UHGV virus genome: UHGV-0210060
DNA: 40,776 nucleotides
Source of the DNA: a virus
Direction: 5' to 3' (one strand)
This document shows positions 2,305 through 8,627 of the stretch, piece after piece (the stretch's first letter is position 1; each line of letters begins with the position of its first letter). The position numbers were made by a program, and so were the translations under genes. The notes below the pieces were generated by a model, which did not search any database, was not told the DNA's origin, and worked only from the letters and a program-made list of their open reading frames with translations.

Positions 2305-2711
2305 TCGTACCTCCTGTCGGTAAATCTGACGCCCTGACCAATAGCCCATGCTGTCGTGTACTCAATCAGACTTGCCATACGCTTCACACTCATCTGCGCG
2401 CTACTTTCGCGAATGTTGACGTATTCGCCTTCAAGGCCGGGCAAAACATCAGCTTCCTGCTTTGTTGCCACTGCATGACCGCTAATCAACAAAACCTTCC
2501 ATTGTTCTGGTTTTAACCACTTATCGCACCATTGAACCTGACGTGCGATATCCGCCAGCATCGCGTGAAATTTTGCGTTCTGGTCAAGGTTGCGCTTGTA
2601 GTCAGTAATGCGGATGGTGACTGGCTTGTCTTTATCGAGTGGTGTTGCGAGGATGGCGTTGATTGCGGCTTGCTGTTGTTGCTTAGTTCGGAGGAATATT
2701 GTTTGCTTCAT
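2301..2711 (-). CDS. ninB: NinB (Orf-family recombination mediator)
   Basis: 136 aa; pattern ..RNLDQN.K..A.L.D..RQV.W...WL..E.WK resembles lambda NinB. Confidence 0.8.
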
Positions 2712-3051
2712 CGAAATTCTTCTCTTTAATTCCAGCGGCTCTGATAGCTTTCATTACTGCAATTACCGTTTTGTCACGCCCATCCTCATAACCCATCGCA
2801 TAAGCACCTTCTTCACCATCTTTCCAAAAGTCGTCATTCGATTCTGGCCAGTCGATATCCAGTTCAATAGCTGCTCGCGATGCCTGCCATAAAGTCCACC
2901 ACTCATTTAAGGAGTGACGAATATCCATGCTTGAAAATGCGAAGTACCTATCACCATTTCTTGCCTCGGTTATCATCTCGAATGGTAATCTCAATTTTTT
3001 GGCAACGTATTCCTCAAACTGCTTTCTTGATTCGTCCATATCACTCTCCAT
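2683..3051 (-). CDS. hypothetical protein, paralog B of 3497..3817
   Basis: 122 aa; shares MDESRKQFEE (from Met5), WQASRAAIE and IRAAGIK blocks with the ORF at 3497..3817. Confidence 0.6.
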   Translation of the reverse strand: MESDMDESRKQFEEYVAKKLRLPFEMITEARNGDRYFAFSSMDIRHSLNEWWTLWQASRAAIELDIDWPESNDDFWKDGEEGAYAMGYEDGRDKTVIAVMKAIRAAGIKEKNFDEANNIPPN

Positions 3052-3066
3052 CGATGATTTTTTGGG

Positions 3067-3249
3067 TTACCAATAATATTTGATAGTCGCCATAATTATC
3101 GGTAGCAACGCGCAGACAACTGAAAACCGTAAAACAAAACCTACTCCCAATATGCGATATCCATTATTCCAGAGAACAAAACTCATCATCAGAAGGAATC
3201 CATGAAAAATCGCGACAAGAAATAAACTACAAATAAATGCATTTACCAT
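3067..3249 (-). CDS. small hydrophobic protein (60 aa, predicted membrane)
   Basis: Almost entirely hydrophobic (FICSLFLVAIFHGFLLMMSFVLW ... VVCALLPIIMATI); AT-rich gene. Confidence 0.45.
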   Translation of the reverse strand: MVNAFICSLFLVAIFHGFLLMMSFVLWNNGYRILGVGFVLRFSVVCALLPIIMATIKYYW

Positions 3250-3308
3250 CGGTACTTACCACTCGCTCTTAATCCAATAAAAAAGGGTTTGCTTCACTGA
3301 ACACTCCT

Positions 3309-3500
3309 TTATTTTTTATGCCTGTAACCCCATTCTTCCAGCAACCTTGCGGCGTACCACCCAAGAAACAAAGGAAAGAACATTACAATGAGATATTCCC
3401 CGCCACGGTCAATGTTCGAAATTGACCAGATTACGATGTAACCAGTGCAGGACAGGAATATTACAAACCCCAAAAAGCTACTTCGTCGACTCATGCTCAC
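3309..3500 (-). CDS. small hydrophobic protein (63 aa, predicted membrane)
   Basis: Two hydrophobic segments (FLGFVIFLSCTGYIVIW; IVMFFPLFLGWYAARLL); start overlaps stop of 3497..3817 ORF (ATGA coupling). Confidence 0.5.
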   Translation of the reverse strand: MSMSRRSSFLGFVIFLSCTGYIVIWSISNIDRGGEYLIVMFFPLFLGWYAARLLEEWGYRHKK

Positions 3501-3817
3501 TCCTTCACTTTGATTCCAGCAGCGCGGATGTTTTCCTCATAAGCATCCATTGCATCACCGAAGCCATTGGAATAATCAACAGTAAACCCTTTGGCTAATG
3601 CTTCTCTGCTGTCGATAAACTTTGGCGCGGTTATTTCAATAGCTGCTCGCGATGCCTGCCACGTTTGCCAGTGGCCTTGAATATCGTCCATCACGTATTG
3701 ACCACCAATATCACCACTGCCAATTTCATGGTGATTTTCAGGGTAACGGATAAGGTCTGAAGATTCGCCTCCACGTCGCAACCAACTTTCTTCAAACTGC
3801 TTTCTTGATTCGTCCAT
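3497..3817 (-). CDS. hypothetical protein, paralog A of 2683..3051
   Basis: 106 aa starting MDESRKQFEE; shares WQ(T)WQASRAAIE and NIRAAGIK with paralog B. Confidence 0.6.
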   Translation of the reverse strand: MDESRKQFEESWLRRGGESSDLIRYPENHHEIGSGDIGGQYVMDDIQGHWQTWQASRAAIEITAPKFIDSREALAKGFTVDYSNGFGDAMDAYEENIRAAGIKVKE

Positions 3818-3834
3818 CGATACTTACCCTCAGT

Positions 3835-4041
3835 TCAACTCACAAAACGCCACGCCATTTTTGCTACAGCGACAGGCATAACACCGATAATCACCCAGAC
3901 AAATGCAGCGCCAAACAACGTATACCATGGATCTTTACCGTCATTCACAAGGCGAATGTAGCTATGCAGAACAATAAAAAACGTTAGAAGAATCCATCCA
4001 ACGCCAACGCATTTGAGTGCGACGAGCATAAACTCAACCAC
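3835..4041 (-). CDS. small hydrophobic protein (68 aa, predicted membrane)
   Basis: Hydrophobic segments GVGWILLTFFIVL and AAFVWVIIGVMPVAVA; first gene after the primase-helicase. Confidence 0.5.
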   Translation of the reverse strand: MVEFMLVALKCVGVGWILLTFFIVLHSYIRLVNDGKDPWYTLFGAAFVWVIIGVMPVAVAKMAWRFVS

Positions 4042-4117
4042 GATTTACTCTCCCCCAAATAAAAAGGCCTGCGATTACCAGCAGGCCTGTTACAAGCTCA
4101 GTGATGTAGATGGTCAT

Positions 4118-5998
4118 TTAATACTCCGTCACGTTTTCCTGTCGCCACGCCTCGTCATATTCCGATTTCGGCATATTGGCGATGTAGCTATATGGCGATC
4201 CTGATTCAAGTTGCAGGAACTGGTGCGATTGCTCGTCAAGGAACAACGGGACACCACCTTCCCAACCTTCGCCGTTTCGTTGCTTTTCAAGCATCAAAAC
4301 AGATGCCGGAGATGCCAGTAGCTGTTCGTCCTTCTCTGACATCTTTTCACCACTCTGAACTCTCTGTAACGCTCTCTCGCGAGCCTTGTTACGCCAGATG
4401 ATGAAAAGGTTGTCTGTCAGGTCTGTTATCGCTCCAGAGCCTTTTACGTCCATTTTCCCGGTTGGTTTTTCTTCGCTGTCACCTTTTCGCGAGTGAGTAA
4501 CGAGAATGACGTGGGAGTTTGTTTTGTTTTTGAAATCGCAAATCGAGTCAACAAACGCCTTCTGCCCGTTATAGTCATCGTCGCCTATGCCACATTTCAT
4601 CAGGCTGTCGATGATGAATAACTGGATGCCGTATCGGCGGCGAGCGTAGTCGAATATTTCGATCAGCCTGTCGGCTTTCGCCGTTCCGGTCAGGCCAAAC
4701 ACCCAAAGTCTTTCGTCATAAAATTTAAATGCAGAGTCAATTTCCAGCACTGGCGGCATCTTGCAGCACGTCGCCTGACGGGTAAGGCGCTTAAGGAGAA
4801 TACCAGGCTTCAGCTCAAGTGACGCGATGCACGTCTTCACACCCTGACGCATTGCCTCAAGTGCCATATGCCCGACAACCTCCGTTTTTCCGTGACCGTT
4901 CACACCATTGACCAGCGTCAACTCTGCCTCACGGAACTGGAATTTATCTGCCAGAGATTCCCACGGTGGATTAAACAGATACTGCTGCTTGCCGTAGAAA
5001 GCGTTGATAGTGTCCTGGTAAAACTCTCGCGCACTGTAGAGTTCTTCAGGATCGAAGTAGGATGCCGTGCCGATGTACTGCCAGATTTCATCCTCGGTAA
5101 CACCGTTCATCAGGCATTCGTTGATGTCTTTGTACGGCAGAGTAACAAGACGGCAACGATGTTCACCGAGTCGGCTTGCGATTTCCCTTGCGGCTTCACG
5201 ACCAACATCATCAACGTCCATCGAGATGAATATTTCCTCAAACCTGTCGAGGTTGTGGTACTCAAACTCAATCCACTGTTGCTTAGCGCCTTTCCCTCCA
5301 CCAAACGGCACGGATAACGCCGAGATGCCGTATTGCGCATAGCTCATACAATCAATTTCGCCTTCGCAAAGCACAACCGCCCTCACGCCAGCGTCCAGAG
5401 CCTGCCATCCGAACAGACAAGGTTCGCAATCACCTTCTGCCATAATGACTTTCTTCCCGTCCGGGCGCTCAGTGCTGATTCGCTTGACCTGCAACAACTC
5501 ACCATCGCGTTTGTACGGAAGCACCAGTGCATCAAGTTCTCGTTCTCCCTTCCACACCTTGCCGCTGACAACCTCGTAGCGCTTTACTACTTCTGGCGAT
5601 ATGCCACGCGATTGCAGGTACTCAAGATGGGATTCTGTTCTGGTAACGTAGCGGGCGATTTTCTTGCGATCAGGTCTGGAGAATTTCTTCTCACGTTTGG
5701 CATCGAAATGGTGATCGTCATCCTTGATACCGAGAAAGGCTTTCGCTTCCTGCATAGCCTGATGCAGGTTAATTCCACGACATGCCATCCACAAATCAAG
5801 CATGTCACCGCCGTCTCCCTCAGCGAAATCAGCCCATTTTTTCTTGCCGCTAAGGTTGACCTTAAGGCTGTTTCCCTTGTCACCGTTGACGTTACCGGCA
5901 ACCCACTCATGCCCCTCTTTCTTGCCGTTTGGCAACAGGTGCGGAGCCACCCTGTCAACCTGCGCCCAAAGCAGATCGCTAAGTTCATTTGGCCTCAT
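4118..5998 (-). CDS. bifunctional DNA primase/helicase (Toprim domain + RecA/DnaB-like ATPase)
   Basis: 626 aa; Toprim-like acidic cluster (CEGEIDCMSY ... ISMDVDDVGREAA); Walker A LVNGVNGHGKTE; Walker B LFIIDSLMK; sits where lambda has P. Confidence 0.8.
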   Translation of the reverse strand: MRPNELSDLLWAQVDRVAPHLLPNGKKEGHEWVAGNVNGDKGNSLKVNLSGKKKWADFAEGDGGDMLDLWMACRGINLHQAMQEAKAFLGIKDDDHHFDAKREKKFSRPDRKKIARYVTRTESHLEYLQSRGISPEVVKRYEVVSGKVWKGERELDALVLPYKRDGELLQVKRISTERPDGKKVIMAEGDCEPCLFGWQALDAGVRAVVLCEGEIDCMSYAQYGISALSVPFGGGKGAKQQWIEFEYHNLDRFEEIFISMDVDDVGREAAREIASRLGEHRCRLVTLPYKDINECLMNGVTEDEIWQYIGTASYFDPEELYSAREFYQDTINAFYGKQQYLFNPPWESLADKFQFREAELTLVNGVNGHGKTEVVGHMALEAMRQGVKTCIASLELKPGILLKRLTRQATCCKMPPVLEIDSAFKFYDERLWVFGLTGTAKADRLIEIFDYARRRYGIQLFIIDSLMKCGIGDDDYNGQKAFVDSICDFKNKTNSHVILVTHSRKGDSEEKPTGKMDVKGSGAITDLTDNLFIIWRNKARERALQRVQSGEKMSEKDEQLLASPASVLMLEKQRNGEGWEGGVPLFLDEQSHQFLQLESGSPYSYIANMPKSEYDEAWRQENVTEY

Positions 5999-6105
5999 GA
6001 TTCCCTCAGATTGAGATTTTTAAACCAGAAATCGACAAACGAAATACTTAACCAGCCGTGGTTATAACCAGCGACCAGTAGCGATTTGATTTTTGATTTC
6101 ATGGT

Positions 6106-6966
6106 TCACCTGTCGAAAAACACGTAGCCAGTTTTCGATACGGTGATTGCGGATGATGGTTTGGATTGTGGTTGAATGGTTTCTGGCTTCTCGTCGTTCC
6201 AGCGTTGACCGTTCAGGTAGCTCGATGGTAACAACCTGTCGAATCCGAACTGCTTACCATTCCTGCATGCGATGTCTTCTGCCAGCATCGTGGCAAACTC
6301 GCTTGCCGTACCCCTGGTAGTTTTACGCCATTCCCTGAACTGTGTTCTGAATGCCGAAGCTGCGTTTTTCTTCCCGGCCTTCCGCATGCCTGCACACCAG
6401 AATATTTCCTCGAATGCCTTGTCGGTTTCTTCGTGACGGTCAGGTGATTTTTCACACTCCGTCCGAACACTTTCGGACATAGTGTTTTTATTATTTCTTT
6501 TTTCTTTTGTAATAGTTTCTTTTGTGTGTCCCTGTTTTGGTGACAGCGCTGTCACCGTTTTGGTGACACTTTTTGTCACCAATGCAGTGACATTATCACC
6601 AGAGTAGTGACACCCTTCGATTTGCCATTCCTCGATGTTCTTGTTAGGCCCGATTTGCTGGCCTTCGCGAAGGATAACCTTCATCGCGATAAGCTCATTC
6701 TTGGCCTTGTTTACCTTCTGTCTTGGCAGCCTGGTAATTTGAGCTAACTGACTATCAGAGATGCGATCCATCTTTTTACCGTAGCCGTATGTTTTACGGC
6801 ATATGGCGTGGGCAACCTTGCTCTGATTTTTCGTTAAATCTGCGCCGATAAGCTCTTCATACAGGGCATTTGCAAGACGGGTATAACCATCTTCAACTTC
6901 TGCCACACGACGCTCCACAGGCCGTTGTGAAGGCCTTAAATGTGTTACGGTTGCAAGATTACTCAT
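6106..6966 (-). CDS. replication initiator, lambda O-like N-terminal domain with divergent C-terminus
   Basis: N-terminus aligns by eye to lambda O ([26 protein letters not shown]...[20 protein letters not shown] ... GPNKNI.EW ... [10 protein letters not shown]); iterons lie inside the gene. Confidence 0.85.
6480..6620. repeat. origin of replication: AT-rich tract plus iteron-like TGACA/TGTCA repeats inside the O-like gene
   Basis: 6481..6530 is A/T-rich; 6538..6616 has repeated GGTGACA / TGTCACC units (ttttggtgacagcgctgtcaccgttttggtgacactttttgtcacc...), the arrangement seen at lambda ori. Confidence 0.65.
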
Positions 6967-7096
6967 GACCTTTCTCCTTCTGCATCAGCTTCACTTTTTC
7001 CAACTCAGCCCGGAATCGACCAGGCTGCTTGAAGCTGGACAGGAAGCGATCACGTAGTATGTGTTTGTGAATTTTGTCCTGGTAAGGACTGAGTTG
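6959..7096 (-). CDS. small basic ORF (45 aa) between cII and the O-like gene
   Basis: Own translation: [48 protein letters not shown]; stop overlaps O-like ATG; below the ORF-track size cutoff. Confidence 0.4.
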
Positions 7097-7137
7097 TTTT
7101 GTCATAATGACTCCTGTGGATTGATCCAGTAATGACC

Positions 7138-7437
7138 TCAGAATTCCATCTGGATTTGTTCAGAACGCTCGGTCTTGCACACCGGGCGTTTTTTATTGAT
7201 GAGTCCATCAAGCGCATACTTAAAAGCCCTGCTAATCGGACTGATGTCTGATGCCATTCCGAAAGCACACAAGACCGAAGCAATAAACCGCCAGTCGGTA
7301 CGACTGATCTTCGATTCATGACAGCCAATCATCTTTGCCAGACCGCGCTGGGTAAGCGTTGACAGGTTGATGAGTAAATCTGTTTCTGCGCGATCAACAT
7401 CGCGCTGTGATAGTTTGCTGTAACTTGTTTGTTCCAT
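7138..7437 (-). CDS. cII: CII-like transcriptional activator
   Basis: 99 aa; C-terminus [19 protein letters not shown] matches lambda CII ([19 protein letters not shown]); position between cro and replication genes. Confidence 0.8.
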
Positions 7438-7575: not shown

Positions 7576-7809
7576 TTATGCAGCTGATGCTCTACGCGAT
7601 ACGAACACCAGGTTTTCCTTTTTCACAGGTTTATAAGCCGTGAAATTACGAGTAGCTTCCTCGATTGCATTCGCTTTATCAGGGGAAGCTCTTCGAAATC
7701 CATATGCAATCTGGTCAAGATAGCCAACTGAAGTTTTCGCTAATGCGGCGAGTCGCTTCCATTCCTCACTAGAAGCCTCTTTTCGCCAGCGTAGTAGTTC
7801 ATTACTCAT
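7576..7809 (-). CDS. cro: Cro-like repressor
   Basis: 77 aa; divergent from cI across an operator-rich intergenic region; first gene of the early-right operon. Family assignment is positional. Confidence 0.65.
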   Translation of the reverse strand: MSNELLRWRKEASSEEWKRLAALAKTSVGYLDQIAYGFRRASPDKANAIEEATRNFTAYKPVKKENLVFVSRRASAA

Positions 7810-7922: not shown

Positions 7923-8627
7923 ATGGAAAACAAAGATATTCGCAAGTCGAATCTGGCGTTTTTGCTAGATGAGCATAAAAAAATCGCGGGTAACACTAAT
8001 GCAAGCTTTGCCGATAAGCTTGGGGTTAGCCCTTCTCAACTCACGCAAGTCTCCGGTGAAAAAAGCACGCGAAACATAGGGGATAAACTAGCAAGAAAAT
8101 TTGAAGCCGCACTTGGGTTACCTAATGGGTGGCTTGATTTGGTACATGATGTAACACCAATTGCATCATGCTCAGATTCTTTAACTTTTGTCGGTCAGGT
8201 AAGAAAAGGGTTAGTGCGCGTGGTTGGTGAGGCAATTCTTGGTGTTGATGGTGCCATCGAGATGACCGAAGAGCGCGATGGGTGGCTCAAAATTTATAGC
8301 GATGATCCAGATGCCTTTGGTCTTCGTGTGAAAGGAGACAGCATGTGGCCCAGAATAAAATCAGGAGAATATGTGCTCATTGAGCCTAACACCAAAGTAT
8401 TCCCGGGTGATGAGGTGTTTGTCAGAACCATCGAAGGACACAACATGATCAAGATTCTTGGCTATGACAGAGATGGAGAATACCAGTTTACAAGCATCAA
8501 CCAGGACCACAGACCAATAACGTTGCCTTATCATCAAGTAGCAAAGGTGGAGTATGTGGCTGGTATTCTGAAGCAGTCACGCCATCTGGATGACATCGAG
8601 GCAAGGGAGTGGCTGAAAAGTTCGTGA
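7923..8627 (+). CDS. cI: CI-type repressor (HTH + S24 LexA-like autopeptidase domain)
   Basis: 234 aa; C-terminal GDSMWPRIKSGEYVLIEP ... GDEVFVRT ... MIKIL fits the S24 Ser/Lys fold; divergent from cro. Confidence 0.85.
   Translation: MENKDIRKSNLAFLLDEHKKIAGNTNASFADKLGVSPSQLTQVSGEKSTRNIGDKLARKFEAALGLPNGWLDLVHDVTPIASCSDSLTFVGQVRKGLVRVVGEAILGVDGAIEMTEERDGWLKIYSDDPDAFGLRVKGDSMWPRIKSGEYVLIEPNTKVFPGDEVFVRTIEGHNMIKILGYDRDGEYQFTSINQDHRPITLPYHQVAKVEYVAGILKQSRHLDDIEAREWLKSS

Follow-up and report, generated by a model that had tools for sequence, protein, structure and literature searches.

Positions 4118–6966 of the window (the whole 40,776-nucleotide stretch of viral DNA that was analysed) are, on the minus strand, the ES18-type replication module of lambdoid phages, carried here by a P22-like E. 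coli phage or prophage; the two coordinates are exact gene boundaries. The module combines a lambda-O-like initiator with a predicted primase-helicase of the T7 gp4/Twinkle type. Across related loci, the ~15 residues at the end of the initiator vary with the clade of the primase-helicase, whereas its origin-binding and central domains do not, and this supports recruitment of the enzyme via the initiator C-terminus. Taken as a whole, with the module identity and the proposed recruitment mechanism together, this explanation is probably correct. The features of the region are as follows.

4065–4088, minus strand: terminator-like hairpin and T run, 30 nt after the primase-helicase stop; left edge of the mosaic unit.
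4118–5998, minus strand: predicted T7-gp4/Twinkle-like primase-helicase, 626 aa (Pfam, PHROG, phmmer, Foldseek).
4217–4936, minus strand: SF4 helicase domain, aa 355–594 (Pfam AAA_25/DnaB_C, phmmer).
5111–5374, minus strand: Toprim catalytic core, aa 209–296 (Pfam Toprim_2).
5774–5941, minus strand: zinc-ribbon-like region lacking zinc ligands, aa 20–75 (alignment to T7 gp4).
5995–6102, minus strand: 35-codon ORF conserved across loci, MKSKIKSLLVAGYNHGWLSISFVDFWFKNLNLRES, corresponding to ES18 gp60.
6106–6966, minus strand: lambda-O-like initiator gene, 286 aa (ORF list; Phage_rep_O and TIGR01610 matches).
6109–6153, minus strand: C-terminal tail of the initiator, aa 272–286; proposed docking peptide.
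6109–6498, minus strand: C-terminal half of the initiator, aa 157–286, made up of a helical domain, a Pro/Ser-rich linker and the tail (PHROG 33384).
6454–6485, no strand: palindrome with 14-nt arms, 86% complementary, flanking the AT-rich tract (inverted repeat I5).
~6480–6526, no strand: AT-rich tract adjoining the iterons (GC 17.5–30%), presumed DNA unwinding site.
6527–6612, no strand: four 19-bp palindromic iterons (repeat search), laid out like the annotated lambda iterons.
6625–6909, minus strand: putative origin-binding N-terminal domain of the initiator, Phage_rep_O, aa 20–114 (Pfam, NCBIfam).

The initiator gene, whose start overlaps the stop of a DUF2740 ORF by 8 nt, encodes a protein of two unlike halves. 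Its N-terminal domain matches Pfam Phage_rep_O (PF04492) with an E-value of 1.2e-37 (128.8 bits; cut-off 28.7) and NCBIfam TIGR01610 (phage_O_Nterm) with 105.3 bits (cut-off 45.5), and BLASTP aligns it to lambda O at 49% identity over residues 1–157 only. In the C-terminal half BLASTP finds nothing significant in lambda O, and a profile of the C-domain compared with lambda O residues 156–299 in hhalign gives a probability of 0.09%. The first-pass annotation, which had described an initiator that keeps the lambda O N-terminal domain and is unrelated to lambda O beyond it, was thus right on both counts. Over residues 159–286 the C-terminal half is ~95% identical to ES18 gp59 by tblastn. Its AlphaFold2 model, of low confidence (pLDDT 56), consists of three helices, a disordered linker and a β-hairpin. 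Homologue searches with this half return mostly truncated or frameshifted fragments and yield no deep alignment.

The origin lies inside the initiator gene, at the boundary between the two domains, and includes the in-gene iterons and AT-rich tract that had been noticed at first pass. Read in the sense of the gene, the iteron consensus is TGTCACC-AAAAC-GGTGACA, in which the arms TGTCACC and GGTGACA surround a five-nucleotide centre. The four copies (6527–6545, 6550–6568, 6574–6592 and 6594–6612) carry 0–1 mismatch each and are spaced 23, 24 and 20 bp from start to start. When up to two mismatches are allowed, the pattern has a single further match in the whole 40.8-kb window; a stricter palindrome pattern matches twice against 0.01 expected. 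The GC content of the adjoining tract falls to 17.5% in the 40-bp window 6480–6519. Judging by homology and by this anatomy, the N-terminal winged-helix domain would bind the four iterons and destabilise the AT-rich tract, unwinding the origin in the manner of lambda O.

Comparison with other phages indicates that the AT-rich tract is a recurrent mosaic breakpoint. DNA homology to ES18 runs from 4048 to 6539 of the window, and homology to phiKp_30 and APC_JM3.2 runs from 4048 to 6490. By this sequence evidence a mosaic unit of ~2.45 kb, composed of the AT-rich tract, the initiator C-terminal half, the small ORF, the primase-helicase and the terminator, travels together, and the origin-binding domain attached to it varies from phage to phage. 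Between cII and ninB there are DUF2740, the initiator, the 35-aa ORF, the primase-helicase and, in addition, three small ORFs that have no Pfam match. The ORF list and Pfam reveal no gene for a lambda P-like or DnaC-like loader in this interval, so the Toprim/helicase fusion does stand in lambda P's place, as first proposed; nor is there a polymerase gene in the replication region of the early right operon, from cII to ninB.

The relationship between initiator and primase-helicase was analysed in 80 related loci, which encode 70 distinct initiators and are not phylogenetically independent. For 67 of 68 distinct initiators the tail type matches the clade of the primase-helicase, regardless of the remaining initiator sequence. 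Of the 44 initiators beside the primase-helicase clade with at least 63% identity, 43 have a tail of type T1 (G[YL]VF[FIY]), and all 24 beside the 58–62% clade have one of type T2 (xEVF[IV][NS]..AIDR), the latter group spanning central domains A, B, C and D. The primase-helicase is at least 93% identical in 33 loci, and 31 of these share the initiator C-domain (at least 94% identical); three kinds of N-domain accompany it, namely the kind present here, a lambda-type domain (49% identity) and HTH_36. N-domains 70–87% identical to this one occur with C-domains that are 55–63% identical and primase-helicases that are 69–78% identical. The suggestion that the initiator C-terminus has co-evolved with the enzyme is supported by these comparisons; linkage alone could produce part of the tail/clade co-variation in the 80 related loci. 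Spearman correlations of identities (0.81 for the N-domain, 0.90 for the C-domain) were rejected as a test of co-variation because near-identical loci dominate the sample and render both values high, and a categorical contingency on distinct proteins was used instead.

Between the two large genes lies a third. The 626-aa gene had been described as the gene next to the initiator, and it does follow the initiator with no P-type gene in between, but the conserved 35-codon ORF intervenes. This ORF starts 3 nt after the initiator stop, and its own stop overlaps the primase-helicase start (ATGA). It is exactly 35 codons long in 73 of 82 loci (43 distinct DNA sequences), has a pN/pS of about 0.4, with stops in both other frames, and shares 33 of 35 residues and the ATGA overlap with ES18 gp60. 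Searches of Pfam, NCBIfam and PHROG with the 35-aa protein return its own family only, and an exhaustive search of 1.84 billion representative proteins gives five matches, none informative; one is a gene-call fusion artefact and two are repeat proteins.

The 35-aa protein could be an adaptor or loader. In the strong form of this explanation the initiator makes no direct contact with the primase-helicase, and the small protein is a miniature functional analogue of lambda P that bridges the two or opens the ring of the enzyme. Its length of 35 codons in most loci, its pN/pS, its position, always wedged between the two genes with the stop/start overlap, and its retention beside at least four unrelated initiator types all speak for such a role. 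However, the ORF is missing from loci L042 and L044 (primase-helicase at 69% identity) and from L081 and L083 (the two most distant loci, at 43% identity), all of which retain the primase-helicase, and none of the searches above connects it to any known loader. We regard a true adaptor or loader in this strong form as rather unlikely. It is compatible with recruitment through the initiator tail and does not exclude it.

The 626-aa protein is 94% identical to ES18 gp61 over 626 residues, and its domain searches agree with the Toprim/helicase fusion described at first pass. It matches PHROG 239 'DNA primase/helicase' with an E-value of 5.5e-171, and phmmer against the PDB finds T7 gp4 (E 3e-23, residues 191–539, spanning both domains) and Twinkle (E 6e-14). 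Foldseek with the AlphaFold2 model retrieves T7 gp4 at 1e-19 to 1e-20, which repeats the sequence result; the model, built from a 16-sequence alignment, is of low confidence (pLDDT 60), and its N-terminal region was left unused. The Toprim_2 match has an E-value of 3e-12 (47.1 bits; cut-off 22.1), and E212, E214, D216, D261, D263 and D291 align with T7 E157, E159, D161, D207, D209 and D237. In the helicase domain, where AAA_25 is barely above its cut-off (28.0 vs 27) and DnaB_C is below it (23.8 vs 27), the Walker A K371, E395, the Walker B D464 and H502 align with T7 K318, E343, D424 and H465. The Toprim acidic residues, the Walker A and B residues, E395 and H502 are invariant in a 16-member family alignment. 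An invariant KQRNG (residues 572–576) resembles the KxRxG of DnaB and gp4 by eye; the T7 arginine finger R522 is unaligned in MAFFT because of a ~30-aa insertion. A Lys-for-Arg 'finger' at K519 was considered and dropped, the aligned T7 residue being R487 and not the R522 finger.

The N-terminal region of the enzyme differs from that of T7 gp4 in one respect that bears on its activity. It is still homologous to the T7 zinc ribbon, as GNSL and W70 align, and dnaG TIGR01391 matches weakly at residues 26–143, yet the positions of T7 C17, C20, C36 and C39 are occupied by A34, V37, G64 and L67, and no Cys4 set is found in any relative down to 43% identity. In T7 gp4, the four zinc-ribbon cysteines are required for template-directed priming. 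With the zinc ligands missing, primase activity is not assured, and on this sequence evidence it could be lost or altered. The enzyme might then be a helicase only, with a primase half that, like that of metazoan Twinkle, either has no catalytic activity or serves regulation, and with host DnaG still priming. The replacement of all four ligands in every relative is as expected for this alternative, as is the presence of Twinkle among the closest solved relatives. On the other hand, the Toprim metal-binding residues are all present and are invariant in the 16 family members and T7, and the cysteine-less region is itself highly conserved (WxDFAxGxxGDLLDLW), which argues for a retained function. 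A helicase-only enzyme is improbable.

Several steps may be proposed for the working of the module. Once the origin is opened, the C-terminal half of the initiator, chiefly its last ~15 residues on a flexible linker, would recruit the hexameric gp4-like primase-helicase, as the co-variation suggests, and the co-translated 35-aa protein may assist. By analogy with T7 gp4, the primase-helicase would replace lambda P and host DnaB, and probably DnaG too; it would load itself there with no need of a P-type or DnaC-type loader once the origin is open, unwind in the 5'–3' direction and prime via its Toprim site, so that replication would be independent of host DnaB and DnaG. DNA synthesis would be carried out by the host Pol III holoenzyme.

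The module arrangement is already known and is common in enterobacterial prophages. The ES18 record (GenBank AY736146) names gp61 "putative primase/helicase; similar to T7 gene 4" and lists beside it gp59, "lambda gpO-like", and a "lambda-like ori"; this annotation dates from 2005. The arrangement has been described for P22-like phages; among the Anderson typing phages it constitutes the 'third type' of replication module (PMC10307801). In Stx phages, e.g. Stx2a_F403, the same module is the Eru5 type (PMC8951638). The module is present in ~220 of 5426 complete E. coli genomes (roughly 4%). Given the ES18 annotation and this frequency in enterobacterial prophages, the module is real but ordinary. 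Identical or near-identical versions occur in the plaque-forming phages ES18, mEp043, Sf101, epsilon34 and SEN22, and the module is therefore functional. The window does resemble prophage sequences in many E. coli chromosomes, but a decayed, non-functional prophage remnant is highly improbable, as the initiator, the 35-codon ORF and the primase-helicase are all intact, catalytic residues are conserved, and modules 98–99% identical in DNA (98.8% over the whole region) are found in plaque-forming mEp043 and Sf101. The layout of the three ORFs suits translational coupling.

The finding mainly confirms textbook lambdoid mosaicism, in which phages exchange replication modules at the origin and initiators are combined with helicases in several ways. 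The module is of some practical interest because it is widespread, both in E. coli genomes and in Eru5 Stx phages, and the type of replication may influence how prophage induction unfolds. The module seems never to have been the subject of biochemical work; the literature search found only genome descriptions, with no biochemical or genetic studies of it. The tail/clade co-variation and the 35-aa gene offer a way to learn how a gp4-like ring helicase might reach a lambda-type origin with no loader. A bolder reading, possible but on the doubtful side, is that a short C-terminal peptide on a flexible linker (...DGSAEVFINQAAIDRxKRG in the sister clade), maybe with the 35-aa protein, constitutes a portable, previously undescribed delivery system for SF4 primase-helicases, one that at least four unrelated origin-binding families have acquired, and that the cysteine-less zinc-ribbon homologue represents zinc-independent template recognition by a DnaG/gp4-type primase.

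Known systems resemble the module in part. ES18 gp59–gp60–gp61 has the same gene order and mosaic unit, but its origin-binding N-domain and iterons differ from those described here; the N-domains of ES18 and epsilon34 are near-lambda, 94% identical to lambda O (PMC2629481). In the Stx-phage versions, unlike this one, the N-domain is HTH_36 and the helicase often contains an intein. Lambda O/P shares the position between cII and ninB, a homologous O N-terminal domain, four 19-bp AAAAC-centred palindromic in-gene iterons followed by an AT-rich tract and a palindrome, and a two-domain initiator with its mosaic joint at the origin. In contrast, the lambda O C-domain is unrelated to the one here, and where lambda has the P loader, which hijacks host DnaB, the present module has a phage helicase-primase; the DnaK/DnaJ/GrpE remodelling that releases lambda P would not be needed. 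P22 gp18/gp12 follows the same logic of a lambdoid initiator and a phage replicative helicase with no loader (PMC10307801), but P22 gp12 is of the DnaB type, lacks a primase domain and is described as non-homologous to the protein of this module (PMC10307801).

The enzyme itself has the single-chain Toprim–linker–RecA-like helicase architecture of T7 gp4 and Twinkle. It is only 24% identical to T7 gp4, contains ~30 extra residues at 540–565 and, in lacking the four zinc-ribbon cysteines, is Twinkle-like and unlike T7 gp4. T7 gp4 works with a phage polymerase at transcription-primed origins, whereas here an origin-binding initiator and presumably a host polymerase are used. Both proteins end in an acidic C-terminus with a final aromatic residue (...NVTEY here, ...DTDF in T7 gp4).

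The replication module belongs to the early right operon of a P22-like E. coli phage or prophage, and all of its genes are read from the minus strand. The late region is ~96% identical to those of phiv205-1, Kapi1 and CUS-3. The features of this region are as follows.

7923–8627, plus strand: CI-like repressor
7576–7809: cro-like gene
7138–7437: cII
6959–7105, minus strand: DUF2740 ORF (48 aa), overlapping the initiator start by 8 nt
6106–6966, minus strand: initiator
5995–6102, minus strand: 35-codon ORF
4118–5998, minus strand: 626-aa protein (primase-helicase)
4065–4088, minus strand: terminator-like hairpin
between the hairpin and ninB: three small ORFs with no Pfam match
2301–2711: ninB

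The hairpin is strong (an 8-bp stem that includes 6 GC pairs, followed by a T run), lies 30 nt past the primase-helicase stop and coincides with the left edge of a mosaic unit; in lambda, the corresponding place is occupied by tR2. The PHROGs label ‘tail protein’ for the DUF2740 family looks like a mis-annotation, given the fixed position of this ORF between cII and the initiator. The nin region carries a pair of paralogous minus-strand ORFs (3497–3817, 106 aa, and 2683–3051, 122 aa), which have WQASRAAIE and IRAAGIK motifs in common as well as MDESRKQFEE, placed at the N-terminus or close to it, and which alternate with small hydrophobic ORFs (3835–4041, 3309–3500 and 3067–3249). A Pfam scan of ORFs 3835–4041, 3497–3817 and 2683–3051 gave no match.

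The N-terminal part of the initiator is of the lambda O type, as the first-pass annotation had it. Residues 20–114 match Phage_rep_O (Pfam, E 1.2e-37), TIGR01610 is matched as well, and residues 1–157 are 49% identical to lambda O (BLASTP). Beyond residue 157, BLASTP finds no match to lambda O, and a profile of the C-terminal half aligned to lambda O residues 156–299 has an hhalign probability of 0.09%. Thus, within the reach of these methods, the C-terminal half is unrelated to lambda O, again as proposed. The in-gene origin is also borne out. Four 19-bp palindromic repeats (6527–6612; TGTCACC-AAAAC-GGTGACA in gene sense) share the arm-AAAAC-arm design of the annotated lambda iterons and are followed by a tract of 17.5–30% GC (6480–6526) and a palindrome (6454–6485), all inside the initiator gene. 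The repeats are clearly not due to chance, since the strict palindrome pattern has 2 matches versus 0.01 expected and the four copies are confined to 86 bp, with a single 2-mismatch match elsewhere in the 40.8-kb window.

The 626-aa protein contains Toprim_2 (residues 209–296) and AAA_25/DnaB_C (residues 355–594) domains in Pfam and is spanned end to end by PHROG 239, ‘DNA primase/helicase’ (E 5.5e-171). Its best sequence matches among solved structures are T7 gp4 (E 3e-23, residues 191–539) and Twinkle, and a Foldseek search with a mediocre AF2 model returns the same two proteins. The Toprim acidic residues E212, E214, D216, D261, D263 and D291 align with T7 E157, E159, D161, D207, D209 and D237, and the helicase residues K371, E395, D464 and H502 with T7 K318, E343, D424 and H465; all are invariant in 16 family members. 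Domain search and alignment therefore agree on the Toprim and Walker A/B motifs noted earlier. Residues 20–75 are homologous to the gp4/DnaG zinc ribbon, with the Cys positions replaced by A34, V37, G64 and L67; no Cys4 set was found in relatives down to 43% identity. The C-terminus (4118–4160) is acidic with an aromatic last residue (...SEYDEAWRQENVTEY) and aligns with the similarly built tail of T7 gp4 (...SESTDWSNDTDF), which contacts T7 polymerase. This tail is absent from 43%-identical relatives. As no polymerase is encoded in the replication region, it may contact a component of the host replisome.

The primase-helicase gene does lie downstream of the initiator, but the two are not directly adjacent as first described, since the 35-codon ORF separates them. 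Its ATG is 3 nt beyond the initiator stop and its own stop overlaps the primase-helicase ATG, a layout that indicates translational coupling to both. An ORF of exactly 35 codons occupies the same site in 73 of 82 loci holding primase-helicase relatives (80 from IMG/VR, plus ES18 and Min27), with 43 distinct DNA sequences encoding 38 distinct proteins (consensus MK..lK.lLvAGYNhG.L...FV.w.F.k.dLRs), a pN/pS of about 0.4 and stops in both other frames. It corresponds to gp60 in the ES18 record, whereas RefSeq E. coli and mEp043 carry no annotation for it. Family searches with the 35-aa protein gave no match, and it has almost no relatives elsewhere.

DNA similarity to ES18 runs from 4048, just past the terminator, to 6539, at the border of the iterons and the AT-rich tract; for phiKp_30 and APC_JM3.2 the similar stretch is 4048–6490. 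By these borders, the AT-rich tract, the C-terminal half of the initiator, the small ORF and the primase-helicase move as one unit. In 33 IMG/VR loci with a primase-helicase at least 93% identical to that of the window, the initiator C-domain is at least 94% identical in 31, while the N-domain is window-like in 18, lambda-type (49% identity) in 5 and not O-like in 10 (HTH_36 where checked). Conversely, N-domains 70–87% identical to that of the window pair with C-domains of 55–63% and primase-helicases of 69–78% identity.

The last ~15 residues of 70 distinct initiators narrow this down. The tail G[YL]VF[FIY] is present in 43 of 44 initiators adjoining primase-helicases of at least 63% identity, with central domain A (the window type), B (DWxRALNxWLRNA) or others, and the tail xEVF[IV][NS]..AIDR..RG in all 24 adjoining the 58–62% clade, where the central domain is A, C or D. 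Domain A occurs with either tail. It is thus the tail, not the remaining initiator, that tracks the enzyme (or the co-varying small protein). A low-confidence AF2 model of the C-terminal half (three helices, then a disordered linker with a beta-hairpin at the end) is consistent with the tail being a tethered docking peptide. The proposed co-evolution of the initiator C-terminus with the enzyme is thus supported, by co-variation that falls short of proof since the loci are not independent samples.

No loader gene is present in the replication region, in keeping with the view that the 626-aa protein stands in place of a lambda P-type loader. By homology, the initiator would bind the iterons and open the AT-rich tract, as lambda O does; the primase-helicase ring would load without a dedicated loader, translocate 5'–3' and prime, as in T7 gp4; host Pol III would extend the primers, and host DnaB, DnaC and the DnaK system would be dispensable. 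Primase activity is the main uncertainty here, because the zinc ligands are missing; whether loading needs the 35-aa protein is the second. Overall, the observation is confirmed, and sequence and comparative evidence support its interpretation.

The arrangement itself is already known, and the window copy is nearly identical to those of sequenced phages. By megablast, the replication region is found at 98–99% identity in mEp043, Sf101 and vB_EcoP-720R6, and at 88–92% in SEN22, ES18 and epsilon34. The Stx phages Min27, phi24B and Stx2a_F403 have it too, interrupted by insertions; at least 80% of it is present in 220 of 5426 complete E. coli genomes. The ES18 GenBank record describes gp59 as ‘similar to phage lambda gpO’, a rep_origin ‘similar to lambda ori’ and gp61 as ‘putative primase/helicase; similar to phage T7 gene 4’. 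The same region was remarked on in epsilon34 (PMC2629481), and an ES18-like third module type of P22-like phages was described as a distant O homologue with ‘a nonhomologous primase-helicase protein’ (PMC10307801). Stx2a_F403 is the reference phage of the Eru5 type, described as an HTH protein plus primase (PMC8951638). Literature searches for experimental work on this very common module found none. The remaining interest lies in this gap and in three features that are apparently undescribed: the co-variation of tail and clade, the conservation of the 35-aa gene and a zinc-ribbon homologue devoid of cysteines.

Several related loci carry additional elements. HTH_36-type initiators adjoining the same primase-helicase contain 1 to about 4 GGAGAA(R/L) linker peptide repeats, their number varying between loci (L012, 2573–3390, compared with L008, L029 and L003, the last being Min27). 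They probably reflect tandemly repeated DNA within the gene, which may be the iterons of an HTH_36-type origin. In the Min27 record this initiator gene is frameshifted beyond the repeat region. Some primase-helicase homologues are interrupted directly behind the Walker A GKT (window residues 371–372) by an intein (Hint plus LAGLIDADG), which the window protein lacks; carriers include the Stx phages Min27 (‘P’, 860 aa; L003, 2163–4745) and phi24B, a 968-aa Cronobacter protein (P0012) and loci L060, L063 and L066. A few loci have a free-standing ORF of 164–174 aa (NUMOD4 plus HNH_3), which looks like a homing endonuclease, inserted immediately upstream of the primase-helicase start (L031, about 3010–3504; L055, about 2980–3504), and E. 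coli MS 196-1 (search match H28, ‘AP2 domain-containing protein’) has such an insertion as well.
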